From NCBI GenBank assembly GCA_040390045.1, contig JAZJZC010000003.1:115-64114 (forward strand): a stretch of DNA of 64,000 bases, in the 5' to 3' direction. The notes under the pieces were generated by a model. That model was not told where the DNA came from, made no database searches, and worked only from the letters and a program-made list of their open reading frames with translations. The stretch is from Patescibacteria group bacterium. Its GTDB lineage: Bacteria; Patescibacteriota; Minisyncoccia; Phycocordibacterales; SIBU01. Both the position numbers and the translations under genes were made by a program. Shown here piece after piece: positions 3,342-64,000 of the stretch. The stretch's first letter is position 1; each line of letters opens with the position of its first letter.

Positions 3342-3407
3342 TAGTAAGGTGAAAATTGCCGCCGCGACTCCGTCGCGGCGGCAATTTTCTTAAGTGCCTC
3401 AATAGGA

Positions 3408-4985
3408 TTGGTCGAAATATTGAAGCCGTTGAAGTGGGATTTCGTGACATTGACAGGTGATTTTGTGCTACAATTACTTTTCGGTATGAAAACACTCGGC
3501 GACAATCACAGTGTTCAGAAGAGCGACAACCCATTTCAAAAAACTCGGGTACAAACGGCTGGCGTCTTTTTTCTGATGATTCTCGTTTCTAGCATTTTTC
3601 CAATCTCCACTTTTGCAGCAAATATTTCAAGTTCGCCCTGCCCATACGTTTGGAAGGAAAATTTAAAATTGGGAAGTTCCAACACTGACGTTCTAAAACT
3701 CCAGCAATTTCTAAATCGTAATCCAGAAACAGCCGTCGCGCTCACGGGCAGTGGCTCAGTCGGCAAAGAGGGGACATATTTCGGAGCGCTGACCAAACAA
3801 GCCGTCATAAAATTTCAAGAAAAATATTCAGCGGATATTTTGACACCCAACGGTCTCTCGAAAGGTACCGGCGCAGTAGCCGCGGCGACTCGCTCTAAAC
3901 TCAATGCACTTTGCACAGGACAAGTAGCGGGAGCTTTCACTTCTGTGGATTCTTCTAAGACGGCCACAACGATAGCTGTCGAAACAAATATTTTAACCGT
4001 CACTGCACCAGCTCAACCTGCTAACACCATCGCGCCAGCAAACGCCGGCGGTGTGCCATTTACCAATTTTACTCTGACCGCAGGCAGTGAAGACGTGACA
4101 GTCAATAACGTGACAGTAGAGCGCACAGGACCTGGCGAAGACGGTGTGTTCTATTCAATTGCACTCAATGATGCAGACGGCAATCAAATTGGAATGGCAA
4201 GAAGCTTGAATTCAAATCACAAAGTTGTCTTGGGCGACCCGTTTGTTGTTCCTGCTCACACCTCACAAACCTTTACCATAACGGGAAACATGGAAAGTGA
4301 CCTTACCAATTACGAAGGTCAGGCACCGATATTGCAAATTGATGCCATCAACACCTCGGTAAAAGTCGTAGGCTCTCTTCCAGTCAGGGGCACTAGTCAA
4401 AACGTAAACACTACGCTGGTCATTGGCACAGCCTACACCTCGCTATCTTCTTTTGATCCTACAGTGGCGACTACCCGCTACATCAATGATACCAATGTCC
4501 GCTTTTCTGGAATTCGGATCACGGCAGATTCACAAGAAGATCTCAGTCTCTCATCGATCGGTTGGGAAAATTCAGGTACCTCTGGAAGCAACGATGTCGA
4601 TCATGTCGTGACAGTCGTACATGAAACTTCGTACCCAACGGAAATAGATGGTAGGATGTTCACATCGGTTTTTGATCCGCCAATCGTTATTCCAAAAGGT
4701 CAGTCGCTCGAGCTCTACGTGCAAGGAAATATCAAACCAAGCGCGGTCAATCGGACTATTAAATTTGATATTCACACGACAGATGATATCGCTCTTTTGG
4801 GAAATAGTTTCGGTTTTTATGTTTCAATTCTTCCTGAAGGCAATACGGGTGCTTCAGGTAATTCTGTCTTTATCACTTCCGACGGCTCACCAGATGGAGA
4901 TAGCGGCTCGCCGTTTTTCAGCGCCTCTCCGGTGAGTGTAAGCGGGGGTACGTTTACGGGTGTAGGGAAGGCAACGTCAAATTAA
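3408..4985 (+). CDS. Secreted protein with putative peptidoglycan-binding (PG_binding_1-like) domain; true start probably at the internal Met near 3486
   Basis: Signal-peptide-like segment AGVFFLMILVSSIFPISTFAAN; motif LKLGSSNTDVLKLQQFLN...GTYFGALTKQAVIKFQEKY resembles PG-binding domain 1. Confidence 0.55.
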   Translation: MVEILKPLKWDFVTLTGDFVLQLLFGMKTLGDNHSVQKSDNPFQKTRVQTAGVFFLMILVSSIFPISTFAANISSSPCPYVWKENLKLGSSNTDVLKLQQFLNRNPETAVALTGSGSVGKEGTYFGALTKQAVIKFQEKYSADILTPNGLSKGTGAVAAATRSKLNALCTGQVAGAFTSVDSSKTATTIAVETNILTVTAPAQPANTIAPANAGGVPFTNFTLTAGSEDVTVNNVTVERTGPGEDGVFYSIALNDADGNQIGMARSLNSNHKVVLGDPFVVPAHTSQTFTITGNMESDLTNYEGQAPILQIDAINTSVKVVGSLPVRGTSQNVNTTLVIGTAYTSLSSFDPTVATTRYINDTNVRFSGIRITADSQEDLSLSSIGWENSGTSGSNDVDHVVTVVHETSYPTEIDGRMFTSVFDPPIVIPKGQSLELYVQGNIKPSAVNRTIKFDIHTTDDIALLGNSFGFYVSILPEGNTGASGNSVFITSDGSPDGDSGSPFFSASPVSVSGGTFTGVGKATSN

Positions 4986-10814: not shown

Positions 10815-11213
10815 GTGACAGAGAACGATCTTTATTGGTATCATAGGGATATGGAAAACATAGACACAAAAAAATATCGAGAATTATTAACAAAAGAATT
10901 AGCAGTTGTCGAGAAAGAATTAAATACCATAGGCCGAAAAAATCCTTCGAACCCGGCTGACTGGGAAGCGATGCCTGACAAAATGGACACGCTTGCATCC
11001 GACTCAAATGACGTCGCTGACAGTATCGAATCCTACGAAGAAAACACAGGAATTTTGAAACAACTAGAAATTCGTTTTAATGAAATCAAGCGCGCACTAG
11101 AAAGAATCGAAGCTGGAACATACGGAACTTGTGAAGTGAGTGGGGAACCGATTGAAATCAAAAGACTTGATGCCAATCCGGCGGCGACTACCTGCTTGAA
11201 GCACATCAAATAA
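10815..11213 (+). CDS. DksA/TraR-family C4 zinc-finger-like regulator (partial Cys set)
   Basis: 132 aa; coiled-coil N-terminus; C-terminal GTCEVSGEPIEI...AATTC resembles the DksA/TraR zinc finger but has only two of four Cys. Confidence 0.5.
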   Translation: MTENDLYWYHRDMENIDTKKYRELLTKELAVVEKELNTIGRKNPSNPADWEAMPDKMDTLASDSNDVADSIESYEENTGILKQLEIRFNEIKRALERIEAGTYGTCEVSGEPIEIKRLDANPAATTCLKHIK

Positions 11214-11328
11214 ACTCGAAGCACCAAATCCGAAATCCGAAACAAACCCCGAAAATCTAAATGTTTAAAATTTTAAAAATTAGAATTTAGATATTGTTTC
11301 GAATTTCGTGCTTCGAATTTCGGATTTC
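11214..11328. repeat. Second copy of the palindromic stop-codon-abutting repeat family (see 2266-2400)
   Basis: 5' arm CTCGAAGCACCAAATCCGAAATCCGAAAC; 3' arm GTTTCGAATTTCGTGCTTCGAATTTCGGATTTC is its imperfect reverse complement. Confidence 0.6.
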
Positions 11329-11334
11329 ATTCCC

Positions 11335-25237: not shown

Positions 25238-26812
25238 ATGAGTTACATAGACCAAGAACAAAAATTAGAAAAAATCTTGAGTAAATTACCTCAAGCAACT
25301 CAAGAACTGTTTAAAGATTATTCTATACTTTTTATTATTGGTGATACCGGGGACGGTTTTAATTTAACCATGGGAGAAATTGGTGAGGTATGTGAACTGG
25401 TTCGCCAAGTGATCACAAAAGAAAGACCGGTGGAAAAATTTGAGGAAGGGTTGAAAGAAAAATTGGCGGATGATGAGGATAACCTAGCAAAAGCGGGGGA
25501 AATTGTAGCAACTATCAACGAGAAAATTTTTGTGAAGCTCTTGCCGGCGTTGGGATTGAAAGCCTTGCCGATTCTCATGACTCCTGCTGTTGCTAAAAAT
25601 TTACCTGACGTAAACGTTTCATTTGAAGAAGGAAAGAGTAAAGAAGATGAAGAGTCTGCGGTCGCACAACCTTTAGGATCTTCACAACAATCGATCGATT
25701 CTCAACTACCGACTCCGCCTCGTACGGTCATGTTAAATAAAATGCCTCAGACTCAAGCGCCAACTGCTCCAAAACCAAACCGCTTCCCAAACCTAAAATC
25801 AGTAGCACCCGTACTTAACCTCAAACCTTTCTCAGGAGCTCCTTCTCCCGGACTTTCGAAATTTTCGAGTGCTCCAAGTGGATCAGTCGGGGCTTCTGCG
25901 AACACTTCGGCCGCACCGATAAAACCTCGCACGCCACTTATGGAAACACCGACCGAAATGATGTCGGAAAATCAAACCGAATCATTCTTGAAAATGCTCG
26001 CCGGTAAATTGGATGAAAAAGATTTGCAATCAAGATTTGATAAACTGCCATTCGCACTTAAAACCGCGCTCCGCTCGATGGACTCGGCTAAAAAAGTGCT
26101 CGACATTGGCATAAAATACGGCCTTCATGTCGACAAACTCGGAGTGGTAGCCGAAGAAACCGGCTTGGTAATTCTTGGTATGACGCACCCCAATCAATTT
26201 CTTCCTCGACTCAACCGCCGTCTCGGCATTGGCGAAGAAAAAACTCGACCTATCGCTCAAGAAATCAACACTGAAATTTTCCTGAAAATTCGCGAGGCGT
26301 TAAAGCAAGTGAACGGGGAAGAGCCTTCGTATGCAAACCTCGCACAATCTGCCGTAGCGACAAAATCAATTGCACCAGCGACCGAACCAGAACCTCATCC
26401 GTACAACCCGATTGACTTAGCCCAAACAAGTGAAGCTCAGACTGAAAATATCGCTGTTCAACAAGAGGGCGGCGAAATCCTTGATCGTGAAAAAATCCTT
26501 AGAGAAATCGAAAATCCTTCGACAGTAAAAATGACGCCTGTCTCAGTGCCAGTACCAAAAGTTGAGAGCAGACCAGTAGAAATTAAACCTCAAATACCCG
26601 CGCCAATTGTTCCACCTCCAGCACCGCCCGCGCAACCACCGCGCCAGGAATTTCAATTTGAACCTCCAGCACCAAAACCTCAAGAAACCCCTAAGCCTAT
26701 CGTGACCTCTCCAACATCAAACATCGTTGACCAGAAACTTTCTGATGTCACCGCGGCAAAGAAAACAGGAAGTTCTTATTCTGCAGATCCGTACAGAGAA
26801 CCCTTGCAGTAG
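25238..26812 (+). CDS. Hypothetical cytoplasmic protein with internally duplicated ~90-aa domain and Pro-rich linkers
   Basis: Two similar segments (…IGDTGDGFNLTMGEIGEV… / …DIGIKYGLHVDKLGVVAEE…) and a PxxP-rich tail. Confidence 0.5.
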   Translation: MSYIDQEQKLEKILSKLPQATQELFKDYSILFIIGDTGDGFNLTMGEIGEVCELVRQVITKERPVEKFEEGLKEKLADDEDNLAKAGEIVATINEKIFVKLLPALGLKALPILMTPAVAKNLPDVNVSFEEGKSKEDEESAVAQPLGSSQQSIDSQLPTPPRTVMLNKMPQTQAPTAPKPNRFPNLKSVAPVLNLKPFSGAPSPGLSKFSSAPSGSVGASANTSAAPIKPRTPLMETPTEMMSENQTESFLKMLAGKLDEKDLQSRFDKLPFALKTALRSMDSAKKVLDIGIKYGLHVDKLGVVAEETGLVILGMTHPNQFLPRLNRRLGIGEEKTRPIAQEINTEIFLKIREALKQVNGEEPSYANLAQSAVATKSIAPATEPEPHPYNPIDLAQTSEAQTENIAVQQEGGEILDREKILREIENPSTVKMTPVSVPVPKVESRPVEIKPQIPAPIVPPPAPPAQPPRQEFQFEPPAPKPQETPKPIVTSPTSNIVDQKLSDVTAAKKTGSSYSADPYREPLQ

Positions 26813-27213
26813 GGGATAGGGGGTAGGGTTTAGGGTATAATTAAACCAATGACATTAAGTTCATTCAAAGAATTAATTGTTTGGCAAAAAGGTATTGAGC
26901 TTGTTAAAGAGATCTACAAGTTAACGGAAAGCTTTCCGAAAACTGAAACATACGGGCTGACTAGTCAGATGAGAAGGTCCGCGGTTTCAATCCCTTCCAA
27001 CATTGCTGAAGGTTATAAACGAAAAAACGTGAAGGAGTACATACAATTTTTGAGCATAGCTGATGGTTCAGCGGCCGAGCTTGAAACACAGCTAATAATT
27101 TCAAAGTCAATTTACAAAACTAATTTTTCAATAGCTGAAAATTTGTTAGAAGAAATACAGAAAATGCTCATAACGATGATTCGCAAACTAAACCCTAAAC
27201 CCTAAACCCTTCT
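26813..27213. mobile_element. ~400-bp TIR-bounded mini-element carrying a four-helix-bundle (rRNA-IVS-type) protein gene
   Basis: 5' TIR GGGATAGGGGGTAGGGTTTAGGGTATAATTAAACC; 3' TIR ACTAAACCCTAAACCCTAAACCCT (reverse-complementary GGGTTTAGGG repeats); the 3' TIR encodes the protein C-terminus LNPKP*. Confidence 0.6.
26849..27205 (+). CDS. Four-helix-bundle protein (23S rRNA intervening-sequence protein family)
   Basis: LTSQMRRSAVSIPSNIAEGYKRKNVKEYIQFLSIADGSAAELETQL matches the family signature. Confidence 0.8.
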   Translation: MTLSSFKELIVWQKGIELVKEIYKLTESFPKTETYGLTSQMRRSAVSIPSNIAEGYKRKNVKEYIQFLSIADGSAAELETQLIISKSIYKTNFSIAENLLEEIQKMLITMIRKLNPKP

Positions 27214-27215
27214 TT

Positions 27216-27641
27216 ATGAGATTCCAAGTTCCACAATTCATTGAAGTTGAAGATAAAATTTTTGGTCCCTTGACCATCAAACAATTTATCTACCTGGCTG
27301 GAGGTGGGGGATTGTGTTTTATTTTCTATTCATACTTCAAACTCTATATCGCCATACCACTCATGATACCGGTGATAGCCTTTTCTGTAGCCTTAGCGAT
27401 GTACAAAGTCAACAATCGCTCTTTTATACTCATCCTTGAGTCAGCTTTCAAATATATGGTCACCAACAAACTATACATCTGGAAAAAAACCGACAGAAAA
27501 CCGACACACAAAACTGAAACTGCACCCGACACACTTTTGTATGTACCCAAACTTTCCGACAGTAAACTGAAAGACTTAACGTGGAGTCTTGATATTAACG
27601 AAAATACCTCGCTCGGTGCCAAAGAGAGTATGGAGCGTTAG
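27216..27641 (+). CDS. Small 2-TM membrane protein, PrgI/VirB3-like candidate
   Basis: 141 aa, two adjacent hydrophobic helices (LCFIFYSYFKLYIAIPLMIPVIAFSVALAMY) directly upstream of the virB4 genes, as in Gram-positive T4SS. Confidence 0.4.
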   Translation: MRFQVPQFIEVEDKIFGPLTIKQFIYLAGGGGLCFIFYSYFKLYIAIPLMIPVIAFSVALAMYKVNNRSFILILESAFKYMVTNKLYIWKKTDRKPTHKTETAPDTLLYVPKLSDSKLKDLTWSLDINENTSLGAKESMER

Positions 27642-27643
27642 TC

Positions 27644-28157
27644 GATACGAAAATACGAAATGGAAACGAATATACGAAAAAATACGAAAACAACCTCACC
27701 AAGTGTATTGTATCCGGAATTATCGTATGATTTGGTTGGTATTTTTTTTGATGTACACAAAGAACTCGGTTTGTACGGGAGAGAAAAACAATATGCTGAT
27801 GCAATCGAGCTAAAACTCAAGCTTCGAAACATTCCTTATGAAAGGGAACTGGCGATTTCTGATAGTGGCAACATACTTGATTTTCTAGTTGATAGAAAAA
27901 TAATATTGGAATTAAAATCTAAGCGGATGTTAACTCCAGATGATTTTCGCCAAACCCAACACTACTTGCAAGAAACACAAATGCGCTTGGGTTTATTAGT
28001 CAACTTCAGAGAAAAAAATATTAAGCCTGTCCGTATTGTTCGCATAGATACCGTAAAAAAGTTACAATATAAGAACGAGAAGGAAAGTCAGTAAGATTGC
28101 GCAAAAAGTTTTTGTATAATTTCGTATATTGGCATTAATAATTCGTATTTTCGTATG
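27644..28157. mobile_element. ~515-bp TIR-bounded mini-element carrying a GxxExxY (PD-(D/E)xK-like) gene, inserted between the prgI-like and virB4 genes
   Basis: 5' TIR GATACGAAAATACGAAA (27644-27660) / 3' TIR AATTCGTATTTTCGTAT (28141-28156); internal TACGAAA direct repeats; the 3' TIR overlaps the ATG of the downstream gene. Confidence 0.6.
27660..28094 (+). CDS. GxxExxY family protein (PD-(D/E)xK nuclease-like)
   Basis: VGIFFDVHKELGLYGREKQYADAIELKLKLRNIPYERE…DFLVDRKIILELKS…LGLLVNF matches the family pattern; the N-terminus is encoded by the repeat. Confidence 0.65.
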   Translation: METNIRKNTKTTSPSVLYPELSYDLVGIFFDVHKELGLYGREKQYADAIELKLKLRNIPYERELAISDSGNILDFLVDRKIILELKSKRMLTPDDFRQTQHYLQETQMRLGLLVNFREKNIKPVRIVRIDTVKKLQYKNEKESQ

Positions 28158-35050: not shown

Positions 35051-35190
35051 TCGATACGAAAATACCTTTTACCCTCCGATACGAAATACGGACAAACGAA
35101 AATACGAAATTATACGAAAACCGTAGCGGTGGTAGAAAGTTTTCGTATTTTTTCGTATGTTCGTACTCACCATTCGTATTTTCGTATCGA
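35051..35190. mobile_element. 140-bp cargo-less MITE of the GATACGAAAATAC TIR family, exactly filling the stop-to-stop gap between convergent genes
   Basis: TCGATACGAAAATACC (35051-35066) … TTCGTATTTTCGTATCGA (35174-35191); internal TACGAAA / TTTCGTA repeats. Confidence 0.65.
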
Positions 35191-49334: not shown

Positions 49335-50088
49335 TTTTCCACTGGTACTCGAAAAGATTTCGGTGGAGTGCTGCAATGCGAGAGTCTTCAATGATGACTC
49401 CGATTTTTTGGTTTTCGGTCAGAGTGATGTACGAGACTTTGTTGTCATAAATTTGCATGATGGTATGCGATGGTGCGGTAGGGAAGGCAATAAATTTATT
49501 TTCAGTAATGTCCGGATTGTAGTTTTGTAACAGTTTCCGTGCTTCCGGTGAATCAAAGATCAACCCTTTTTTCTTGGTATTAAATTTTCTTCGCTTGGCG
49601 ACGTAGTCTTTGTTTATTTCCGAAATATATTTTTCAATAGAAATAATATCCGAGTAGGCATAAATTTCTGATTGAGCGGTGAGCGAATCTTCCAACACTT
49701 TTTTCATACCATCCATCCCCTCATAAAATTGCACGTTAGGTTTTCCCGATAGCAGATTAAAATCAGAAACCATTTTTCCCATGATTCCGCCAAGACTCGC
49801 CTCTGCGGTTTTTATAGCTTCTTCGCGTTTTTGCAGAAGATCGCGGAGCTTTCCTGGGTGGGTAGGGAAGAAGAGTGTGATCTTTCCAACGTTATCCCTT
49901 TTTTCTACCAAACCAAAGACTATCAACTGTTCTAGTATTTTGTACGCAAGGCTTCTTTTTACCCCCGATTTTTGCGCTACCACTCGGGCTGGCATAAGGC
50001 CGTTTTTTAGTAAGGATTCATACACCAAGGACTGCTCTTTATTGAGCCCGAGTTCTCCTAAAAATTTTTCGTATTGAATGTTTTCCAT
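49294..50088 (-). CDS. TrmB-family HTH transcriptional regulator
   Basis: N-terminal wHTH LGLNKEQSLVYESLLKNGLMPARVVAQKSGVKRSLAYKILEQLIVFGLVEK; start placed at MENIQYEKF. Confidence 0.6.
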   Translation of the reverse strand: MENIQYEKFLGELGLNKEQSLVYESLLKNGLMPARVVAQKSGVKRSLAYKILEQLIVFGLVEKRDNVGKITLFFPTHPGKLRDLLQKREEAIKTAEASLGGIMGKMVSDFNLLSGKPNVQFYEGMDGMKKVLEDSLTAQSEIYAYSDIISIEKYISEINKDYVAKRRKFNTKKKGLIFDSPEARKLLQNYNPDITENKFIAFPTAPSHTIMQIYDNKVSYITLTENQKIGVIIEDSRIAALHRNLFEYQWKIIPDEKTVAASRE

Positions 50089-50129
50089 GCCACAAGTATA
50101 GCATTTATATGTTTTTGTCACAAGTATAT

Positions 50130-50882
50130 GACAATATTGATATGTGGATAAGCCATATTTAACAAGCTGTTACAGCTAAATAGCCGTATTTGCCATAGTT
50201 AATTGACAGAACAAATTAAAACTGTTACTATTTTGCGCAGAGAGTTTAGGTCATTGAGGAGATAGCTAAAAGATTGTTCCCCGCCTCTAGTTCGAAAGAA
50301 AGGTACTACGGCCTTCCGCCACAGCGGACTAAGCGTAGAAAGAAGAGAGGAAGGGGAGAGAAACAGCCTTTTGAATATCTTGTTTCGAATGATGAGTGTT
50401 CTACATATAGTCAGGCTTCGAAACCCTACTAGATGAAGGAGCTATGTCTTTAAGACAAACTTATCGCACGGAGTTCGGCGAGTAATCGCCAGGACATCGA
50501 TGGCGCAAAAAGTCTAACCCGCTTTATGCGTCAAAATGTCCTTACGCCAAGAAGCCGCACAAAAAGAGAGTTGTGCGGAAGTGAAAGGAAAGAGTAAGGA
50601 AGATGTTTGAAAAATAAATAGCGAATCAGGAAAACGCGAAACAAGAAATGTGTTTTGCAATGTTGTTCCTCTTCGCCCCACTCATTAAAAGTTTTTACTT
50701 GAGGTTGGTGGGGTAAGAGGGAATGCAAATGCAATTCCTTTTGTGGCGTTCACGTTCGACAAGCAAGCGGGGACAGTCTAGACCCCCGCTAGCTTGTCGA
50801 AAAATTCTTAGAGACATATCTGAAATGCCGAAAAAAGGCAGGATGTGGAAAGTGGAGATAGTATCAACATTTTCATTTTGAG
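50130..50882. other. ~750-bp noncoding region at the left edge of the high-GC island; multiple hairpins, no supportable ORF
   Basis: GC rises from ~40% to ~50% across it; hairpins at 50553-50578 and 50757-50799; isolated perfect DnaA-box 9-mer TGTGGATAA at 50142-50150. Confidence 0.4.
50757..50799. promoter_or_regulatory. Strong GC-rich hairpin (8+6 bp stem, 11-nt loop containing GTCTAGAC) without a flanking U-tract
   Basis: CGACAAGCaaGCGGGGacagtctagacCCCCGCtaGCTTGTCG. Confidence 0.4.
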
Positions 50883-51239
50883 ATGAGTGAATTCACCATG
50901 ATTAAAATTAACTTCTCCGGCCACCCGGTGGCCGGATTCGACGTTGCTCCTTTGGTGGGAGCCAACCTGCCTTTCGAGGCAGCTACCTTGGCCGAGACGG
51001 TTCGGGAACTCATTTTGGCCCTCCCTGGCCGGGATGAGCTCCTCAAAGGGGCCAAGGCGGAGATAATTCTCCCCGGCCTTGGCAGTGCCGTGGCCGTTTT
51101 GTTGGCCGAATGGCATGGCCAGTTCGGCAACTGGCCCTCGATCCGGTGGGCCGTCCGCGGGGAGAAGGGGTTCACTTGGCCCGACGAGGCCCGGGTGGAC
51201 TTGAACTCCGTGCGGGAGTCCGCACGGACCGCTCGCTAG
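50883..51239 (+). CDS. Hypothetical protein (high-GC island)
   Basis: 118-aa ORF with GC3-rich codon usage distinct from the host; no recognisable motif. Confidence 0.5.
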   Translation: MSEFTMIKINFSGHPVAGFDVAPLVGANLPFEAATLAETVRELILALPGRDELLKGAKAEIILPGLGSAVAVLLAEWHGQFGNWPSIRWAVRGEKGFTWPDEARVDLNSVRESARTAR

Positions 51240-51402
51240 TTGCGGACAAAAATCCCAGAGCAATCTGGTTGCGACAAAATCCGGTCGTGTAAATCGAGGT
51301 AAAAAGTTTGTCCCCGTTTTCTTGGAAAAATGGAGAGTCGTGAAGGAGCAGAACTTCCGTCAGGATGACTGTCGACAATAGTCATGAGGGTTAAATTTAT
51401 CT

Positions 51403-51428
51403 GGAGAAGTTTTGGTTAAAACTTCTCC
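51403..51428. repeat. Perfect hairpin GGAGAAGTTTT-ggtt-AAAACTTCTCC (island hairpin family copy 1), preceded by a second hairpin at 51365-51385
   Basis: Exact 11-bp inverted arms; loop context TTTTGGTTAAAA is shared with copy 2. Confidence 0.6.
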
Positions 51429-51522
51429 TACTTATCAAGTTCATAAAATTATTTTGTGAACTTTTAGGTATCAGAGATGTTCTTTCCAGAAATGGTGGCG
51501 CAAATATTTCGCGCTTCTGTTT

Positions 51523-51969
51523 ATGGAAAGAACACTTGTATTGATAAAACCTTTGGGGCTCCAGAATTCACTTCTGGAAATCCTCCGGGCTTTGAAGTCG
51601 ATTGGCACTATTGTTGAAAGGCAATTGGTTCCGGTTTCAAGTGAGCGGATAGCCGCCCATTACGCCGAACACTCCACAAAGGCGTGGTTCGGCAAGATCG
51701 TGGGTTACTACCACGGTCAGACAGTGATGGCGCTGGTCCTCGAGGGGCCCGACGTCACCGCACGCTTGCGTGGAATTGTCGGACCATCCGACCCGCGGAA
51801 GGCAGCACCCGGACAAATTCGGGCGCTCGTCCTGGCCAAGTTCCAGGATAAAAAAGACGGGTGGCGAGCGATAGAGCTCGTCACTTCTGGCGTGGACAAT
51901 TTTATCCACGCCTCGGACTCTCCGGAGGCCGCCGAGCGAGAAATCGCTCTGTGGTTTCCAAAAAAATAA
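51523..51969 (+). CDS. ndk: Nucleoside diphosphate kinase homolog (divergent)
   Basis: LVLIKPLG…HYAEH…VMALVLEG…NFIHASDSPEAAEREIALWF aligns with the NDK catalytic His loop NxxHGSD and the conserved Lys, Tyr and Glu. Confidence 0.75.
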   Translation: MERTLVLIKPLGLQNSLLEILRALKSIGTIVERQLVPVSSERIAAHYAEHSTKAWFGKIVGYYHGQTVMALVLEGPDVTARLRGIVGPSDPRKAAPGQIRALVLAKFQDKKDGWRAIELVTSGVDNFIHASDSPEAAEREIALWFPKK

Positions 51970-52099
51970 TTTGGGTTTTCAAAGGAGAAGCAAAGGGTTT
52001 TGCTTCTCCTCTTTATTTGGCTCGCGGTAACCGTATGTACGGAAGTATCGTTGGTCAATCAAGAAACCATTCAGCGCAGTGTTGCGCTAGAAAGGAAGT

Positions 52100-52567
52100 A
52101 TGGATATAAAAAAACTTTTCGCCTTGGCAGATAGGGCGAAAACAATTGAGGCAGGGCAAAATTATGCCCTGCCCAATGCGGTGTTTTGCGTTCTCCTCGA
52201 TGTCCTATTCAAGGGCAAAGAGGGAGCGCAGAGTCTCAGGGTGGAACTTGAGACTGAAGATTCAGACGGGTTGTATGTCAACGAGGCGTATTACGACCTG
52301 TTCGTTCTCCGTCATTCCGACGGAGAAGGCTTGTGCATCCCCGCGCCGCTTCTCCATGTGGAGACGGCGATGACCCTAACGAAGAGGGCGCTCGTCACTG
52401 TCAGAGGACAGCACGACCGGCAACATGAGCCGGCCGAATCGGAAGAGTTCTTTAGGCTGTGGGAACAATTCCACGAAGAAGTCTCGCCGGCGAGACTTCT
52501 CGACTCTGTCCGTGAACATCTCAGCAAGTCTGCCCGCTTGGCAGCGGGTTTCCTTGAGACTGAATAA
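52100..52567 (+). CDS. Hypothetical protein (high-GC island)
   Basis: 155-aa ORF, island codon usage, followed by an intrinsic terminator. Confidence 0.45.
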   Translation: MDIKKLFALADRAKTIEAGQNYALPNAVFCVLLDVLFKGKEGAQSLRVELETEDSDGLYVNEAYYDLFVLRHSDGEGLCIPAPLLHVETAMTLTKRALVTVRGQHDRQHEPAESEEFFRLWEQFHEEVSPARLLDSVREHLSKSARLAAGFLETE

Positions 52568-52637
52568 AATAAGTTGAAGGTTACAAGGGAAGAGTGACTT
52601 CCTAATCCTCCGGGATAAATTGTCGCAAGGGTTTATC

Positions 52638-52668
52638 GAGCACCAATATCTTTTGGTGCTCGGGTTTT
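52638..52668 (+). terminator. Intrinsic terminator after the 52100-52567 ORF
   Basis: GAGCACCAA tatctt TTGGTGCTC followed by GGGTTTTTG. Confidence 0.6.
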
Positions 52669-52669
52669 T

Positions 52670-52697
52670 GGAGAAACTTTTGGTTAAAAGTTTCTCC
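52670..52697. repeat. Perfect hairpin GGAGAAACTTTT-ggtt-AAAAGTTTCTCC (island hairpin family copy 2)
   Basis: Exact 12-bp inverted arms; the stem differs from copy 1 by compensatory substitutions; same ggtt loop. Confidence 0.6.
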
Positions 52698-52788
52698 TCT
52701 CGATCGGGCTTGCAATTAATTTTGTAAATCCGTAGAGAGCAATCTCGAACCGCGCTCCGCAGGCGTAACCATCTGTGGAAAATGCCTT

Positions 52789-53607
52789 TTGAAAGGAGGG
52801 CGAAAAATGAATCAGTTCTATAAAGTGCAAAAGGGGATTGGGTCGCCGGGGAAACTCTGGACTGGGGATAAAAATATCCCCGCGGAGCCAACGGTGGCCG
52901 AGGCAAAACTGTTCGAGATGACGTGCGCATGCGGTGCAACAACTCGAAAGCTCTACCTCGACAACCGCCTCACGGGAGACACACTGAAAGCGGTCGACAT
53001 TTCGAAGATTCCCCTTCTCCACATCGCGACGGGTGGTGTTGGTTCCATCTCCTCCGCTACTTCGGTGGAGGGGGAGAAGGGAATCCACTCCAGCAAAGAA
53101 AACCAGTTGCAGAGCACCTGCAACTGGTCTGGCCGCATCGGGGGATACGCGGTGGTGAACCCGGTCGCTGTCATCAGCGGCCGAAAGATATATCATCCGC
53201 CTCCAGCCACTCAGGGTTTTCATTGGGAGAACGTCTATAGCGGGTCCACTCTCACCGAGTGGATTTTGGTGGCGGACGATGTCACTCGGCACTCACTGCC
53301 GGTGATTAGCCTCCAGCGGACCTGCCCGATTTGCCGCAAAAAGCAGGAGGTTGCGGAGCTTCCCGAAGATCTCACGGTCACTCGCGATGAGCTGACAGTC
53401 GCAGGACTGTCGGAGGAGCAACTGGAGGAAGCGCTCTCTTCTATGGTTAACATGGAGGGAGGTGGGGAAGTTAGAACTTCTCCAAATCTTTCTGCAAGGT
53501 TACTCCTTGCCTACACCCATTCCGAGAGTTGTTGGTGCTCGGAGGCAATTGTGGCGGCCATCAAGGCAGCCAAAAAGCGTTCGGTGCAATCGCCGGCCGT
53601 CGTCTGA
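52789..53607 (+). CDS. Hypothetical protein with Cys-x2-Cys pairs (possible zinc ribbon), high-GC island
   Basis: 272-aa ORF; CACGATTRK … CPICRKK motifs. Confidence 0.45.
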   Translation: MKGGRKMNQFYKVQKGIGSPGKLWTGDKNIPAEPTVAEAKLFEMTCACGATTRKLYLDNRLTGDTLKAVDISKIPLLHIATGGVGSISSATSVEGEKGIHSSKENQLQSTCNWSGRIGGYAVVNPVAVISGRKIYHPPPATQGFHWENVYSGSTLTEWILVADDVTRHSLPVISLQRTCPICRKKQEVAELPEDLTVTRDELTVAGLSEEQLEEALSSMVNMEGGGEVRTSPNLSARLLLAYTHSESCWCSEAIVAAIKAAKKRSVQSPAVV

Positions 53608-53832
53608 AAATTTTGCGCGTTTTAATTACAAAACGCGTTGCACCCGCAAAGTGGGAAAGGGTTAACACGTGAACGTTGCGGCGTTCATTAAAAAAACAAT
53701 TTTCCAGCACTGCCTTGGTCGGTGGTGTTGGACTTTATCGGGCTCGCGAATTTATTTCGTGCGTCCGTAGAGGTGGCCATTTTTTAAAAAATATCTAATC
53801 AGGTTCAGAATATAAAATTTAAATTTTGAATT

Positions 53833-54930
53833 TTGTATTCTGAACCTGATGACAGAAAAAAATTAAAAAATGTGAATACACCAAATCAAACAATGGTTGA
53901 GTTGGCGGCAAAGTACAAAAAAGCCGCCGATGAAAAAATGGAAGAAATCGTACACCTCTCAAAAGTTTCGCAGGACTCTGCGTACAGAGAGGGATTCAGG
54001 CACGAGGCTCTTTGTCGAGCTCAAACGGCCGCCGAGACTGACAAGGTCTTTTTTAGTGGCCTCGGGGTCAAGGGTGTTCTCATCCTTGGCATTTCAACTC
54101 TCGAGCCTAAAAAAGCTCAGAGCGTTATCGCCTCGTCAGGCGGTTGGAAGTCACACGCGAATTCGACCCTGCTCTGCCTAGATGGAGAGAAAGGGGAAAT
54201 TCGTAAGAACAAAGCGGGGACATGCTGGATCATCGATCTTGCATCTCCGCGGCGGACAGCCATGTTTGCGTGGGAATCCGGACCAAAGTCAGTTCGGCTC
54301 GCTGGACCTCGACTTAATACCACCAACGGCGCAGCTCACTGGTGTGGACTTGTGTCGGAGATGATGCCGTTCAATACGGAAATGTCCCCGCACACAGCTT
54401 CGTTTCTTAAGCGAGCCGTAGCTTGCATGACCGAACATGGGATGACCCCCAAGCAATGGGAGCGTGCCGAAAATGCTCGGCGTACTGCCGAGAGCGAACG
54501 ACGATCCGAGATCATCTGTGCCGCCACGAAGGCTGGGCAAATTGACGGTGTCGTTGTCTGTGTTGAGTGTGGTTGCAACCCAACTCGGGGTGAGAATTAT
54601 ATTCTTGCTGCCGAGGAGCTCGCCGGTACTACTGGCCCTGTGCCAGAAAATCTCGCGGAGTTAGTCCACGCGAAAATCGCGGCTACCAAACTGGCGGCCG
54701 AAGAAGCTCGGATTATGGCCGAGCTGAAATCTGAACAGCTTCGAATTACTGAGGCAAAAATCGAGGCGGAAGTCACAGCAAAACAACAGGTAGAAACTGA
54801 AAAAGTTTGCCGTTTGATCGGTGTCTCTTTTGCCGAATGGCAAGGACTGACGCCAAAACAACAAAGACAAGCGCTTCATCGCGCTCGTCTCGCGGGTAAA
54901 CTTCAAACGCAGAAATACAGAAATAAATGA
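53833..54930 (+). CDS. Hypothetical protein with Cys cluster (CVECGC) and C-terminal coiled coil, high-GC island
   Basis: 365-aa ORF; C-terminal A/E/K-rich helical region. Confidence 0.5.
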   Translation: MYSEPDDRKKLKNVNTPNQTMVELAAKYKKAADEKMEEIVHLSKVSQDSAYREGFRHEALCRAQTAAETDKVFFSGLGVKGVLILGISTLEPKKAQSVIASSGGWKSHANSTLLCLDGEKGEIRKNKAGTCWIIDLASPRRTAMFAWESGPKSVRLAGPRLNTTNGAAHWCGLVSEMMPFNTEMSPHTASFLKRAVACMTEHGMTPKQWERAENARRTAESERRSEIICAATKAGQIDGVVVCVECGCNPTRGENYILAAEELAGTTGPVPENLAELVHAKIAATKLAAEEARIMAELKSEQLRITEAKIEAEVTAKQQVETEKVCRLIGVSFAEWQGLTPKQQRQALHRARLAGKLQTQKYRNK

Positions 54931-55238
54931 ATCTTCAAGATTTAGTCCTCCTCCGCGTTTGGGTGGAGGGAAATCACAGTGCTCTGGAATGGAAGGTCGG
55001 TGATCGGACATTCCAGATACTGGGAATCAAAGGCGCGGAAGGGGGCTACGAGAGGTTTTTTGATCGCGGGAAGCACCCGATGCGCCAGAGAATCTCAGAA
55101 CAAGAGGTGATGAAGGCGCTCGAAAACGCCATATCACCTCTCGAACTTTACCAGAACGAAAAAGGTTCTGGGGAGTTTTTTCCCAACGCTGAAACGGCAC
55201 TTGATGCCGCGAAGCGTTGGGTCGGTCAGCGGGTCTGA
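54927..55238 (+). CDS. Hypothetical protein (high-GC island), 4-nt overlap with the upstream ORF
   Basis: 103-aa ORF translationally coupled (ATGA overlap) to 53833-54930. Confidence 0.4.
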   Translation: MNLQDLVLLRVWVEGNHSALEWKVGDRTFQILGIKGAEGGYERFFDRGKHPMRQRISEQEVMKALENAISPLELYQNEKGSGEFFPNAETALDAAKRWVGQRV

Positions 55239-55513
55239 CCAAATCACGGAGCGCGGACCTCCCTTAATTGTCCGACAAGTTTGCAAGTTCACGGAGAGTC
55301 TTGCAAAATTTCAGGGTTAAAAATTCTCCACTTCTAATGCAGCCATCATTCTAATATTCTTGTCCGTATCAAATGTAACCAATTATTTTAAAGGTACATT
55401 TGGGCGGGTTAAATTACGAGATTGATGCCGGTCACAAGCCCGAATAAATTGCAGAGTGGGATGTGTACCCCAAGGGGTTCACGAAGCGTGTGTTTCTCTC
55501 TTCGCACACAAAA

Positions 55514-55550
55514 CAAAACCGCCCCGATGTAGATCGGGGCGGTTTTGTTT
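55514..55550. terminator. Bidirectional intrinsic terminator immediately downstream of ruvB
   Basis: AAAACCGCCCCGAT gtag ATCGGGGCGGTTTTGTTTT. Confidence 0.75.
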
Positions 55551-56629
55551 TACAAAAGTTTTTCCTGAGCCGAAGATTTATTTTTAATTTTAAGGTGTCC
55601 GTAAGCTTTCGCTGTGGCAGTCCGGCCGCGTGGAGTTCGCTCGATAAGGCCGAGCTGAAGCAGGTAGGGTTCGTTGACTTCCTCGATAGTGGCTTGTTCT
55701 TCGGAGAGCGCGGCGGCGAGGGTATTAAGTCCCACTGGTCCACCATCAAATTTTTCGATAAGGGTATTTAAAAGAGAGCGATCAGAATGCCCGAGACCGA
55801 GTTCGTCAATGCCGAGAAGGGCCAGTGCTTTGTCCACAATGTCTTTAGATAATTTTCCTTTATTCACTTGCGCAAAATCTCTCGCCCGCTTCAAAAGATA
55901 GTTGGCGGTTCGCGGCGTGAAGCGGCTGCGTTTGGCAATTTCTGCTCCAGCCAATTTTTCTACCTCAACTCCTAAAATTTTGGCAGACCGGCGCACGATT
56001 TCTTCGATCTCTTCGTTTGAATAAAATTCCAAACGGAAAACGCCACCACCAAAGCGTGAACGTAATGGTGAAGAGAGAAGTGCGATGCGTGTAGTTGCGG
56101 CAATGAGGGTAAACGGCGGTAGTTCAAGCTGAATGGTTCGAGCTGAAGGACCTTTGCCGATAATAATGTCGAGCTGACCCGACTCCATGGCAGGGTAGAG
56201 GACTTCTTCGATAGCTTTATTGAGTCGATGAATTTCATCGATGAACAAAATGTCGCCTGGAGCGAGGTTGGTGAGTACCGAGGCAAGATCGCCCACCTTT
56301 TCAATGGCAGGTCCCGAAGTAATTTTGATTTGAGCACCGATTTCTTTAGCGATTAGGTGAGCGAGGGTGGTTTTTCCGAGCCCCGGGGGTCCATAAAAGA
56401 GCAAATGTTCCGGCGGATGCTTCCGTTCGGCGGCAGCAGTGAGCAAAATCCTCAAGTTTTCCTTGATATTTTTTTGCCCAATGTAATCTTCCCACAAACT
56501 CGGTCTTAGAGCCTGATCAAGAAAGATTTCTTCTTCCACTAAAACTTCCTTTTTACCCTTATTGTTAGGGCTATTTTCCTCTTCCTGCGAGCCAGGTTGT
56601 GTAAGTTTATTTACGGAACTTCTTGACAT
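55550..56629 (-). CDS. ruvB: Holliday junction branch migration ATPase RuvB
   Basis: Walker [18 protein letters not shown], Walker [12 protein letters not shown]-terminal winged helix. Confidence 0.95.
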
Positions 56630-61375: not shown

Positions 61376-63919
61376 TTGAATCCTGAATCCAAAAAGAAAC
61401 GTTTAGTTTTGCTCGACGCTCACGCCATCTTGCATCGTGCCTACCACGCGCTGCCGGATTTTTCTTCGAGTAAGGGAATTCCCACGGGAGCTTTGTACGG
61501 GCTTTCGAGCATGCTCATTAAAATTATTACTGATTTAAAACCGGACTATCTTGTAGCGGCGTATGATTTGCCGAAGCCGACCTATCGTCACGAGGCGTAC
61601 AAAGAATACAAAGCAGGACGCGCTAAGGCCGATCCGGAACTGGTGTCGCAGATGAAAAGTTCTCGCGATGTGTTTGAAGCATTTTCTATTCCGATGTATG
61701 ACAAGGAGGGATTTGAGGCGGATGATGTGCTGGGAACCATTGTGGAGAAGGTAAAACAGGGTCTAGGGTCTAGGGTAGAGGGTAAAGAAAAAGAAAAAAA
61801 TTCAAAAACTTCTAAACCCTTTCTCCTAAACCCTAACCCCTTCGATCTCGATATCATCATCGCTTCGGGAGACATGGACACCCTTCAACTTGTGGATGAT
61901 AAAAAAGTGCAGGTGTATACATTGAAGAAGGGAATTCAGGATACGATTTTATACGATGAGGAAGCGGTGGTGAAGCGGTTTGGTTTTGTGCCAAAACTTT
62001 TGCCGGATTACAAAGGTCTGCGAGGCGATCCGTCGGACAATATTATCGGCATCAAGGGAATTGGAGAAAAAACTGGCGGGATTTTGATCAGCAAATTCGG
62101 CACGATTGAGGATATTTATAAAAAATTAAAAAAAGATACGAAAGAATTTAAAAAAGCTGGACTGACAGATCGGATCATCGGACTTTTGAAGGATAATGAA
62201 GAGGAGGCGTTGTTTAGCAAAATGTTGGCGACTATTCGAAGGGATGCGCCGATAGATTTCGTGTTGCCTGAGAAAACGTGGAGAGAAACGCTTGATATGG
62301 GAAAAGTAAATAAAATGTTTGCTGAGTTTGAGTTTAGGAATTTGGGACCGAGGTTCGCGCAAGCTTTGATGGGGAAGGGTCCGGCATCTCCGTCGGAACT
62401 TCGAGCGGCGGGCGCCGGAGGAACTCCAGCTCCCGATGCTGGCCAAGGGATGTTTTCCAGTATGGTGAGTGTTGAAAGCGTTGATCCAAAAATTTTAGCT
62501 GAAACTTCTGTGGCGCTTTGGTTGGTTAATTCCAACATTACCAATCCGCAACTTTCAGATATTTTAAATTTCAGTGGGGCGACAACGTTTGACGAAGCTC
62601 GCGTGGCAATTTTTAAACGTTTGTCGGAATTAAAATTGGATTTTGTTTTTGAGAGTATTGAAAAACCACTTTTGCCGATTGTGCGCGCCATGAAAGAGCG
62701 AGGGATTAGCATCGACAAAGATTGTTTGAAAAAACTTTCCAAGGAGTACCATCACGAATTGAATTCGCTCGAGAAAAAAATTTGGAAATTAGCTGGTGAA
62801 GAATTTAACGTGGCATCGCCCAAACAGCTCGGGGTAATTCTTTTTGAAAAGCTCGGTCTGAAGGCTAAAAATCAGAAGAAAACTGGCAGTGGCGCGCTTT
62901 CCACCAAAGAATCTGAGCTTGAGAAGTTGCGCGAGAGTCATCCGATTATCACCTTGATTTTGGAGTATCGCGAGTTGGCGAAATTGCTCGGCACCTACAT
63001 CGACACCATTCCTGACATGGTTGGCGCTGACGGGAAACTGCACGCTCAATTTTTGCAATCGGGAACGACGACCGGGCGTATGGGTTGTGAAGATCCAAAT
63101 TTGCAAAACATTCCCAATAAAACCGAACTCGGCCGAGCGATTAGGCATGCATTTGTGGCCACACCCAAATTTAGTTTGGTAGCATTTGATTATTCTCAAA
63201 TTGAACTTCGCATCGCGGCTTTTTTGTCGGGTGACAAGAAACTGATCGAGATTTTCAAAAACGGTGAGGATGTTCACACGGCTGTAGCTTCGGAAGTGTT
63301 TGGAGTTTCGCCTGCCGATGTGAAGCCTGACATGAGACGAAAAGCCAAGGTAATTAATTTCGGCGTGATGTACGGCATGGGAGTCAATGCATTGCGGGCA
63401 AATCTCGGTGGCAACCCTTCAACCGGCTCAGGGCAAGCGACACGAGAAGAATCGCAGAAATTTTATAATGATTATTTTGAAAAGTTTTCGGGCCTAGCGA
63501 AGTATCTCGATTCTGTTAAAGCTCAAACCGCACGGACAGGTTTTACCGAAACTTTTTTTGGCAGGAGACGTTATTTCCCTGGCATTACTTCAAAAATTCC
63601 GTTCATCCGCGCTTCAGCAGAACGCATGGCGATCAATGCGCCGATTCAGGGAACTGAGGCAGATATTATTAAAATTGCCATGGTTCGAGCTGATGAGTTA
63701 ATCAAATCGTCCGGACTTTCTGAGAAAGCCTATCTTCTGCTTCAGGTGCACGACGAATTGGTGTACGAAGTTGAAACTTCGCAGGTAGAAAAATTTATTG
63801 AAAAAGTGAAACCGATTATGGAGTTGGTTATTCCACCGGAAAAAATTAGCGACATTGTCTGTAAGGTGGAAGCAAAGGTGGGTGAGAATTGGGGGGAGAT
63901 GAAGAAGCTTGAAGCTTAA
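61376..63919 (+). CDS. polA: DNA polymerase I (5'-3' exonuclease + polymerase domains; 3'-5' exo region degenerate)
   Basis: N-terminal 5' nuclease motifs (LLDAHAILHRAYHALP, DDVLGTIV, GDMDTLQLV), polymerase motifs A (LVAFDYSQIELRIAAFLS) and B (RRKAKVINFGVMYGM), HDE near the C-terminus. Confidence 0.95.
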   Translation: MNPESKKKRLVLLDAHAILHRAYHALPDFSSSKGIPTGALYGLSSMLIKIITDLKPDYLVAAYDLPKPTYRHEAYKEYKAGRAKADPELVSQMKSSRDVFEAFSIPMYDKEGFEADDVLGTIVEKVKQGLGSRVEGKEKEKNSKTSKPFLLNPNPFDLDIIIASGDMDTLQLVDDKKVQVYTLKKGIQDTILYDEEAVVKRFGFVPKLLPDYKGLRGDPSDNIIGIKGIGEKTGGILISKFGTIEDIYKKLKKDTKEFKKAGLTDRIIGLLKDNEEEALFSKMLATIRRDAPIDFVLPEKTWRETLDMGKVNKMFAEFEFRNLGPRFAQALMGKGPASPSELRAAGAGGTPAPDAGQGMFSSMVSVESVDPKILAETSVALWLVNSNITNPQLSDILNFSGATTFDEARVAIFKRLSELKLDFVFESIEKPLLPIVRAMKERGISIDKDCLKKLSKEYHHELNSLEKKIWKLAGEEFNVASPKQLGVILFEKLGLKAKNQKKTGSGALSTKESELEKLRESHPIITLILEYRELAKLLGTYIDTIPDMVGADGKLHAQFLQSGTTTGRMGCEDPNLQNIPNKTELGRAIRHAFVATPKFSLVAFDYSQIELRIAAFLSGDKKLIEIFKNGEDVHTAVASEVFGVSPADVKPDMRRKAKVINFGVMYGMGVNALRANLGGNPSTGSGQATREESQKFYNDYFEKFSGLAKYLDSVKAQTARTGFTETFFGRRRYFPGITSKIPFIRASAERMAINAPIQGTEADIIKIAMVRADELIKSSGLSEKAYLLLQVHDELVYEVETSQVEKFIEKVKPIMELVIPPEKISDIVCKVEAKVGENWGEMKKLEA
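61758..61840. repeat. In-frame 83-bp palindromic element (GGGTYTAGGG TIR family) inserted within the polA 5'-nuclease domain
   Basis: AGGGTCTAGGGTCTAGGGTAGAGGGTA … TAAACCCTTTCTCCTAAACCCTAACCCC; encodes LGSRVEGKEKEKNSKTSKPFLLNPNPF between conserved DDVLGTIV…KQG and DLDIIIASGDMD. Confidence 0.6.
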
Positions 63920-64000
63920 AGCTGGTAGCTGTCAGCTTAAAAAAATTTGCGTTTTGAAACAAAGAGGGGTAGTTTATACTTCAGATAGATAGAAGGAGGA

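Follow-up and report, generated by a model that had tools for sequence, protein, structure and literature searches.

RESULTS

A heptamer hairpin in the polA reading frame

The stretch of DNA analyzed here (the window, 64 kb long, to whose forward strand all coordinates refer unless a locus, L with a number, is named) belongs to the metagenome-assembled genome (MAG) of an uncultured member of the Patescibacteria/Parcubacteria, near Candidatus Taylorbacteria. Toward its end lies polA, the gene for DNA polymerase I (Pol I), whose 5'-nuclease domain contains an in-frame hairpin element built from convergent tandem heptamers. The deposited record MES2087960.1 is identical to this PolA. The gene and the parts of the element are as follows:

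61376..63919, forward strand: polA open reading frame (ORF), 847 amino acids, TTG start (an alternative gene call gives 802 amino acids); 5'-nuclease (PF02739, PF01367) and family-A polymerase (PF00476) domains
61758..61841, forward strand: whole hairpin element, 84 bp, imperfect palindrome
61759..61787, forward strand: G-rich arm, four units GGGTCTA GGGTCTA GGGTAGA GGGTAAA(G)
61760..61840, forward strand: extra coding part, 27 codons, G129-P155, GLGSRVEGKEKEKNSKTSKPFLLNPNP
61788..61809, forward strand: A-rich apical loop, 22 nt, AAAAAGAAAAAAATTCAAAAAC, holding the core AATTCAAAA (N-S-K)
61810..61841, forward strand: C-rich arm, TTCTAAACCC TTTCTCC TAAACCC TAACCCC T, first unit TAAACCC

The first-pass annotation of this DNA had described a palindromic segment with inverted termini, and such a segment is present: a repeat search returned arms of 32 nt each (61758-61789 and 61810-61841), 75% complementary and 20 nt apart, and the predicted RNA fold of positions 61750-61850 reached -32.4 kcal/mol, compared with -19.6 +/- 3.0 kcal/mol for 200 shuffles, none of which was as good (z -4.25). 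Four GGGTNNA units face three to four NNACCCT units (TRF period 7), and the G-rich arm matches the quadruplex pattern G3N4G3N4G3N4G3; "terminal inverted repeat" is a loose label for such convergent tandem heptamer arrays, which lack a target-site duplication. The annotation had also assigned the termini to a GGGTYTAGGG family that flanks a four-helix-bundle gene, and this assignment holds. The window contains five copies of the motif, where 0.16 would be expected (at 26826, 27193, 27200, 61759, and 61766), confined to the two flanks of that gene and the polA insert, and because all five copies fall at just these two loci, the observation is real and nonrandom. The two loci, 35 kb apart, share repeat unit and layout, and the joined flanks of the four-helix-bundle cassette, with the gene removed, align colinearly with the polA insert, the likeness being confined to the heptamer unit.

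Scans of the window against Rfam and for tRNAs gave no match, no rRNA was found in it, and a terminator scan showed no terminator-like site in the polA insert. Elsewhere in polA, the variable linker stretch (62345-62465) has no significant hairpin (z -0.03), and nor has an insert in the fingers region (63395-63460; z -0.46), where the extra GNPSTGSGQA (63413-63445) follows NALRANLG and at least 5 extra residues occur in 12 of 120 relatives. A GAAGCTT period-7 repeat (63904-63923) overlaps the polA stop, with a small hairpin (AAGCTGGTAGCTGTCAGCTT) after it, and in locus L077 a heptamer array, AGTAATT x3, begins directly behind the polA stop.

The insert in the PolA protein

The insert occupies a loop of the 5'-nuclease domain between the DDxxGT and SGDMD metal-binding motifs, and the Pol I motifs on both sides are intact in one 847-amino-acid frame. 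The annotated in-frame, stop-free passage through the element, with the polymerase frame preserved, is borne out by the single ORF at 61376-63919, and so is its estimate of about 27 extra residues (G129-P155) at a normally short loop: of 120 aligned PolA relatives, the majority have 3 to 10 residues at the place of the 27 extra in the window PolA. The distance from EADD to GDMD is 55 residues in the window; among 80 related species (species-level Parcubacteria genomes, GTDB representatives), it is at most 30 in 50 (28 to 30 in 49, 26 in one more), 31 to 34 in 9, and at least 35 in 21. A phmmer comparison with M. smegmatis Pol I (6vde) left a 27-residue gap at the insert, and Taq Pol I has a short KKAEKEGYEV connection at this position. 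A protein search with the 64-amino-acid insert plus flanks gave one weak match only and no further insert-bearing orthologues, because short queries gather too few candidates.

In an AlphaFold2 model based on a 66-sequence alignment (mean predicted local distance difference test [pLDDT] score, 88.4; predicted template modeling score, 0.87), the 5'-nuclease fold is confident, and residues 127-156 form a coil between helix 114-126 and strand 157-163. The surface loop that the annotation had raised as a point to check is thereby supported as a coil, but with block means of 51 to 52 and values below 50 at residues 135-141 it has no defined structure, and its surface, noncore character is taken from this low-confidence coil rather than from computed solvent exposure. 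Judged from the model, the loop is apparently structurally permissive.

Evidence for translation of the insert and removal of stop codons

Since 7 is not a multiple of 3, a perfect GGGTYTA array runs through all three phases and presents a TAG in every third unit: (GGGTYTA)n reads GLGSRV-stop-G in every frame, and the complementary CCCTAAA array meets TAA. Two codons of the window insert stand at such positions:

61778..61780, forward strand: E135 codon GAG, where TAG is expected in frame from a perfect GGGTCTA repeat (GAG in L001, AAG in L003)
61820..61822, forward strand: TTT codon, where a perfect CCCTAAA repeat would put TAA

All three polA copies of this type depart from the repeat in their third G unit, TAG having become GAG in the window, GAG in L001, and AAG in L003, so that the peptides read GLGSRVEG, GLGYRVEG, and GIGYRVKG, respectively; the C-arm unit that would give TAA has been changed to CCCTTTC, CCCTCTA, and CCCTCCA. 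Other peptides encoded by the insert region include VEGKEK and PFLLNPNPFDLDIIIASGDMDTLQLVDDK. The polA frame is the only one open through the element. For comparison, metagenomes were scanned for hairpins with a G arm and a C arm; at least 120 contigs had a convergent heptamer layout like that of the polA insert, and of the 372 sense frames in 124 such hairpins, 31 (8.3%) were open. The scan served for this statistic and for a few clearly bacterial contigs (e.g., L085); it is not a clean bacterial census, because many short contigs look eukaryotic and telomere-like (TTTAGGG runs, microsatellite-like translations).

Translation of the insert is supported by these sequence features and is almost certain. 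If the stem-loop were cut out of the mRNA, nothing would be left to select for frame or for loss of stops, yet all 30 of the longer loops found among the 80 species carry their extra residues in frame. An intein was rejected as a candidate: one would expect a length of at least about 130 amino acids, Cys or Ser at the N terminus, and His-Asn at the C terminus with Cys, Ser, or Thr behind it, and the insert has 27 residues, starts with Gly-Leu-Gly, and ends in Asn-Pro with Phe next. An intron, translational bypass, and frameshifting were dropped as well, the frame being open, the insert adding 27 amino acids, and no splice or hop signals being needed.

A translated insert could in principle be there for the sake of its peptide, the Lys/Gly/Pro-rich residues having been selected for a PolA function such as contact with DNA or a partner and the palindrome being incidental. 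Lys-rich extras at the same loop in many relatives (KSQKSKVKS, KIKNSKLKI, KGQRSKVKG) and a G(L/I)G(S/Y)RV(E/K)G...LNP motif in three orthologues are in keeping with such selection, but the recurring peptide is what heptamer DNA yields when translated in that frame, apart from it, the peptides found there show no relation to one another (NPLRHSDTSPLLRGR, PAKAGIQ...LDSRLRGND, the purine-repeat EEGVG), AlphaFold2 gives the insert no structure, and 50 of the 80 species do without one. We consider an adaptive loop unlikely.

Orthologues with GGGT-type inserts

Two further polA genes have an insert that matches the one in the window in codon position and phase, those for P0002 (locus L001; 74% identical to the window PolA, with independent assemblies in ENA and NCBI records) and P0120 (L003; 61% identical). 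Each insert has four GGGTNNA units, then a variable loop of about 30 to 45 nt, and then three to four NNACCCT units. The full loop segments fold at -38.5 (window), -53.3 (L001), and -46.2 (L003) kcal/mol, and a slightly shorter segment gives z values of -6.45, -6.54, and -7.44, respectively. In a distance tree the window and P0002 group, though not as sisters, within a clade of 15 members. P0120 belongs to another clade, of 4 members, two of which have hairpins of other units: GGGTGAA... against (CCCATCA)x4 in P0093 and (GGAAGCA)x3 against (CCCTTCC)x3 in P0058. GGGT-type arrays are absent from polA in all 80 GTDB representatives.

These orthologues bear on two alternative explanations. A short, low-complexity repeat in a MAG invites the suspicion of an assembly or binning artefact, i.e., a chimeric join or a misassembled repeat in polA. 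Such an error hardly comes into consideration: the frame is intact and stops have specifically been removed, independent assemblies from ENA, NCBI, and JGI have orthologous inserts at this codon, and the contig is 148.8 kb long, with a gene order around polA (T2SSE, TsaE, polA, holA-like) that matches L001 and L003. It is further disfavored because the same protein has been deposited and P0002, with the same kind of insert, was assembled independently.

The second alternative is a functional cis-element, in which an RNase III stem or a quadruplex (G4) in the G-rich arm would tune PolA through mRNA cleavage, ribosome pausing, or effects on replication or transcription. By analogy, its layout matches the RNase III-cleaved stems of rRNA intervening sequences (IVSs) (PMC4990558), and heptamer G-repeats with a four-unit preference from Xanthomonas and Nostoc form G4 in vitro (PMC4692102); moreover, four G3 tracts have been kept in all three GGGT-type inserts while other positions changed, and arm complementarity is retained in orthologues that are 61 to 74% identical. 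We nevertheless regard a cis-element as improbable, given that the 50 species without any insert manage without it, that the many unrelated sequences inserted in the loop fit tolerance better than a specific function, and that mRNA cleavage within an essential ORF would be costly. The ViennaRNA quadruplex model of the arm alone gives -8.4 kcal/mol versus -32.4 kcal/mol for the hairpin, and because the hairpin is modeled as far more stable, G4 formation would need strand separation.

Recurrent insertion at the same loop

In 30 of the 80 species, more than 30 amino acids separate the two motifs, and all 30 extras are in frame. No other site in a folded part of PolA takes up insertions as often: 30 of 120 sequences have 5 or more extra residues here, a figure exceeded only by the inter-domain linker. 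Beyond what the first-pass annotation had noted, the same loop carries other in-frame arrays or hairpins in 30 of 80 species, and the repeat has lost its built-in stop codons. Period 7 was the best period in 12 of the 17 loop inserts having at least 2.7 repeat units. In close relatives the loop holds arrays of about four A-rich heptamers, namely, AAAGGTC x4 (L004), AAAAGTC x4 (L206), AAAATTN x4 (L207), and AAGCTAC x4 (L011), and further heptamer arrays occupy it in L034, L052, L077, L080, L204, and L205. Elsewhere it holds unrelated GC-rich hairpins, all in frame: in L051 and L058 (NPLRHSDTSPLLRGR), in L076 (PAKAGIQ...LDSRLRGND), and in L061 (z -9.1), L020, L023, L029, and L064.

The polA gene of L011 contains three heptamer arrays (2713-2744, 3272-3305, and 3337-3370): (AAGCTAC)x4 in the 5'-nuclease loop, an identical copy of about 31 nt, GAAAAG flank included, in the inter-domain linker, and, adjoining the linker copy, (GGGAATC)x4, the same unit as reported for Xanthomonas. 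In-frame repeat insertions are not restricted to polA, because TsaE of L001 (3200-3718) carries them as well. At least three in-frame extras distinguish it from the window TsaE: (CCCTAAA)x3 at 3443-3464, read as STLNPKP; a perfect GC hairpin, CCCCGTCCCGAT...ATCGGGACGGGG, read as PRPDSHRDG; and a C-terminal extra.

Arrays at one and the same loop raise the possibility of a purely local origin, whereby a heptamer microsatellite arising from native codons expanded by slippage, its inverted copy was made by template switching (a quasi-palindrome), and nothing moved in. Several arrays follow native codons without a break, GAG CAA GTC AAA passing into (AGTCAAA)n in L206, TTG GTC AAA into (GGTCAAA)n in L004, and AAG CTA CAA into (AGCTACA)n in L011. 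In the window, the native AAGGTAAAA directly upstream (61749-61757) resembles the last G unit, GAGGGTAAAG; the window loop has its AATTCAAAA core in common with short inserts in L005 and L207; and no target-site duplication or transposase was found. A purely local origin does not readily explain why one unit occurs at distant loci within a genome (at 26.8 and 61.8 kb in the window; in TsaE and polA of L001), why an identical array of about 31 nt with its GAAAAG flank occurs twice in polA of L011, or how unrelated GC-rich hairpins, not derivable from local heptamers, came to stand at the polA loop of other species. We hold it to be possible but rather unlikely.

The four-helix-bundle cassette and other heptamer loci

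The other locus of the GGGTYTAGGG motif is a cassette at 26808-27213, between the gene at 25238-26812 and a PrgI-like gene that starts at 27216:

26808..26842, forward strand: G-rich heptamer arm, GGGGATA GGGGGTA GGGTTTA GGGTATA, beginning at the stop codon of the preceding gene (25238-26812)
26849..27205, forward strand: PF05635 gene (23S rRNA intervening-sequence protein, S23p, four-helix bundle), E 5.6e-38; bAvd is matched more weakly
27186..27213, forward strand: C-rich arm, (CTAAACC) x3.3, overlapped by the 3' end of the PF05635 gene

Its arms are 84% complementary, and it fills a spacer on the 25-nt scale between the two genes; it looks like a self-contained unit with the layout of a 23S rRNA IVS, but intergenic. 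In L003, a PF05635 gene has convergent GTSCAAA heptamers on its flanks. A tblastn search of plasmids with the window PF05635 protein gave 43 records, mostly cyanobacterial and from Riemerella, eight of which were fetched (L208 to L215), so that ten genes could be compared: those of the window and L003 and the eight cyanobacterial or Riemerella plasmid loci. Period 7 was best on both sides in six of the ten and on one side in two, across Patescibacteria, cyanobacteria, and Bacteroidota. The plasmid genes sit inside operons, between those for ribonucleotide reductase beta and alpha, cas6 and cas4, or cas10 (cmr2) and cmr3, and are flanked by short-period arrays of up to 14 heptamer units, usually complementary, such as (GGGAGTA)n/(CCCTACT)n, (GGGAACA)n/(TGTTCCC)n, and AAGGTTY/RAACCTT; both arrays are direct, not inverted, in Pseudanabaena L212. 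On these sequence comparisons, the cross-phylum association of four-helix-bundle genes with convergent heptamer arrays appears to be new, no description of it having been found in the literature searched, the coverage of which was incomplete. A jackhmmer search over the fetched loci returned only two four-helix-bundle genes and one PDDEXK_3 gene.

That PDDEXK_3 family is also represented in the window, where a PF13366 gene (PDDEXK_3, GxxExxY-type; 27660-28094) lies within inverted short-period arrays of the ATACGAAA type (region 27645-28130), with arms (27669-27691 and 28108-28130) that are 87% complementary. A solo hairpin of the ATACGAAA unit stands between genes at 35096-35164 (about 35060-35190) and makes, together with the PDDEXK_3 locus, a second pair of gene-carrying and ORF-less forms, one gene away from the four-helix-bundle cassette. 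Two other solo hairpins, at 2262-2400 and 11208-11332, are about 125 to 140 bp long, 80% identical, and built from AAATYCG/TTTCGRA heptamers, each extending from the stop codon of the upstream gene to just before the next gene; together they make up a dispersed intergenic family of the host genome.

Locus L085 (3677-5945), a non-CPR (candidate phyla radiation) bacterial contig with Tgt, QueA, and a SpoIID-like gene (GC 0.49), contains a GGGTATA hairpin that makes the C terminus of the SpoIID-like ORF (...GSRVEGVGSRVNVNDQPSTLTPIP, then stop), an in-frame LYPIPYTLYP array in QueA, and an intergenic hairpin whose loop, AAAAGAAAAAGAAAAAAAATC, is closely like the polA loop of the window. A conserved loop shared between the two (AAAGAAAAAGAAAAAAA) was set aside as a candidate, with the AAGAAAA/TTTTCTT motif in only 6 of 124 hairpins versus a 1.9% background.

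A sliding 100-nt minimum free energy scan of the window was dominated by local GC, especially at 50 to 56 kb, and gave no help in locating other in-gene hairpins. At 50000-56000, GC is 0.47 to 0.51 versus about 0.42 elsewhere and strong local RNA folds are many, with no rRNA or tRNA detected; this segment may be foreign or otherwise atypical DNA.

DISCUSSION

Relation to known repeat elements

Ogata and coworkers are said to have described, in 2000 and 2002, the Rickettsia palindromic elements (RPEs) RPE-1 to RPE-8. RPEs form families of 100 to 150 bp with a recognizable consensus and tens of copies in Rickettsia. The polA element is like them in being a short palindrome in frame in an essential gene, translated, in a noncore surface region, and without a transposase of its own; it differs in its length of 84 bp, its tandem 7-nt arms with only the unit shared between copies, its patescibacterial host, and the existence in the same genome of a long form that carries a gene. 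Within the 64 kb, a multicopy family of the RPE type would amount to the GGGTYTA unit at two loci, alike only in the heptamer. Of the RPE likeness claimed by the first-pass annotation, translation within an apparently permissive loop stands, but the element cannot be classed as an RPE: the host is a patescibacterial MAG, no Rfam match was obtained, and there is no consensus beyond 7 nt, all of which sets it apart from RPEs as described. RPEs are mentioned in PMC1950309.

The closest resemblance is to the IVSs of 23S rRNA. The selfish 428-nt IVS of Coxiella encodes S23p, has inverted repeats that form a 28-bp stem, which RNase III cleaves, and includes GACAGAT heptamers in two or three tandem copies (PMC4990558). 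In the CPR, rRNA genes contain 23S_rRNA_IVP ORFs and, besides these, numerous short IVS-like insertions that lack an ORF (PMC11270868). Common to these elements (Coxiella, Leptospira; PMC4990558) and the heptamer hairpins are a terminal inverted-repeat stem, heptamers adjoining the ORF, and, in the long form, a loop that holds a PF05635 ORF; short ORF-less forms are known from enterobacteria and CPR rRNA (PMC11270868), and IVSs are regarded as selfish and horizontally spread. An inverted-repeat stem and end heptamers are found in both the polA insert and the cassette at 26808-27213. Of the two, the cassette, as the long form, has a PF05635 ORF (26849-27205) in its loop; the 22-nt loop of the polA insert has no ORF, which does not exclude kinship because ORF-less IVSs are known. 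On the other hand, RNase III excises classical IVSs from helix 25 or 45 of 23S rRNA, whereas the elements here lie in polA and an intergenic spacer, and excision without ligation would destroy the polA message, since the short form sits in the coding frame.

Other heptamer repeats and hairpins offer partial parallels. A miniature inverted-repeat transposable element was one candidate, but the flanks GTAAAACAG and TTCGATCTC share no direct repeat and no transposase-linked partner was seen. The short tandemly repeated repetitive (STRR) heptamers of cyanobacteria are a comparable repeat class. The G-rich heptamers GGGAATC (Xanthomonas) and GGGGA(C/T)T (Nostoc) show a four-unit preference, frequently form convergent pairs, are mostly noncoding, and form quadruplexes (Rehm et al. 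2015, PMC4692102). They are similar to the polA arms in their 7-nt G3 unit, about four units, convergent stem-loop pairs, position near gene ends, and quadruplex potential, but they are underrepresented in coding regions and not linked to a carried gene, whereas the polA copy is translated, has had its stops removed, and has the unit GGGTNNA. The REPIN/REP-RAYT (repetitive extragenic palindrome and its associated tyrosine transposase) system (PMC3116915, PMC3733652) resembles it in having inverted short repeats in a hairpin of about 100 nt that is nonautonomous, dispersed, and mostly extragenic; however, REP arms are imperfect palindromes with a GTAG or CGTC tag and depend on RAYT, in contrast to the tandem heptamers of polA, and no RAYT gene turned up in the window, where no search aimed at RAYT was made. 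TAACTGA direct repeats of Beggiatoaceae, cyanobacteria, and Bacteroidetes (MacGregor 2015, PMC4679880) are likewise genome-specific arrays of 2 to 6 heptamers, mostly intergenic and occasionally in ORFs, and their cyanobacterial and Bacteroidetes range overlaps that of the four-helix-bundle genes; they differ in being mostly direct repeats just upstream of start codons, with no hairpin or carried gene described.

A probable passenger in a permissive loop

The reading toward which we lean, with somewhat better than even confidence, is that a heptamer hairpin sits in the permissive polA loop as a tolerated passenger and is read through as a disordered loop. From sequence, the insert fits best as an ORF-less member of an IVS-type class of heptamer hairpins, because it shares repeat unit and layout with the PF05635 flanks and the design known from the IVS literature; the long form of this class carries the four-helix-bundle (S23p/PF05635) gene in its loop, as in the layout of classical 23S rRNA IVSs. 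The present state can be pictured as the outcome of several steps: (i) the element would have arrived at the polA loop by copying from another locus, through gene conversion or a transposition-like step, or, alternatively, have grown there through replication slippage and template switching; (ii) it would have survived there, as the loop accepts extra residues once frame length is kept and stops are mutated; (iii) it would now be translated as a disordered Lys/Gly/Pro-rich loop of about 27 residues with no required role in PolA; and (iv) repeated capture at this loop would reflect its permissiveness together with native codons that are A-rich and heptamer-like (CAA GTC AAA) and can seed or catch arrays. 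Copying between loci and local growth may both contribute. For copying speak GGGTYTA at two window loci, CCCTAAA in frame in both TsaE and polA of L001, the duplicate of about 31 nt in L011 polA, the 80%-identical solo hairpins, and the ATACGAAA arms at two loci.

Several observations weigh against a passenger that was copied in: (i) no mobilizing enzyme or transposase, target-site duplication, or consensus beyond the heptamer was found, because of which "insertion" is inferred rather than shown; (ii) the arrays of L206, L004, and L011 run straight on from native codons, which favors local expansion; (iii) the three GGGT-type inserts share position, phase, and the stop-removing change though they are spread over clades, and the distance tree favors neither a single ancient gain with losses nor repeated gains; and (iv) all four G-tracts and the pairing of the arms have been kept across the orthologues, which could mean selection on nucleic-acid structure, so that the element would not be a mere passenger.

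A more far-reaching proposal, which we offer as a doubtful speculation, would unite the heptamer hairpins as the termini of a single mobile family found across phyla. Autonomous members would carry an S23p/Avd-like gene, 23S rRNA IVSs would be one landing site among many, and ORF-less copies would colonize genes; the polA copy would be an mRNA IVS that, through RNase III processing of its stem or through G4 folding, ties PolA output to RNA processing, and the four-helix-bundle protein would spread or maintain the arrays.

To conclude, in-frame palindromes in essential Rickettsia genes, heptamer repeats, and IVS elements were already known, each separately; what appears to be new is an IVS-type heptamer hairpin within a protein-coding gene of the CPR, the repair of stop codons in a repeat, and a polymerase loop that is repeatedly colonized. 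In-frame palindromes in essential genes have so far been a near-unique curiosity of Rickettsia, and the same outcome is met here in Patescibacteria with a different kind of element. The shared heptamer arms join intergenic heptamer repeats, four-helix-bundle "rRNA intervening sequence" genes, and inserts in coding genes, a link absent from the literature searched, and the polA case offers a handle on where IVS elements and heptamer repeats come from and how mobile they are. For annotation, peptides of the GLG(S/Y)RVEG...TLNP type in CPR proteins are to be recognized as repeat derived. The edited built-in stops show a route from repeat DNA to protein sequence, with one polymerase loop hit repeatedly.

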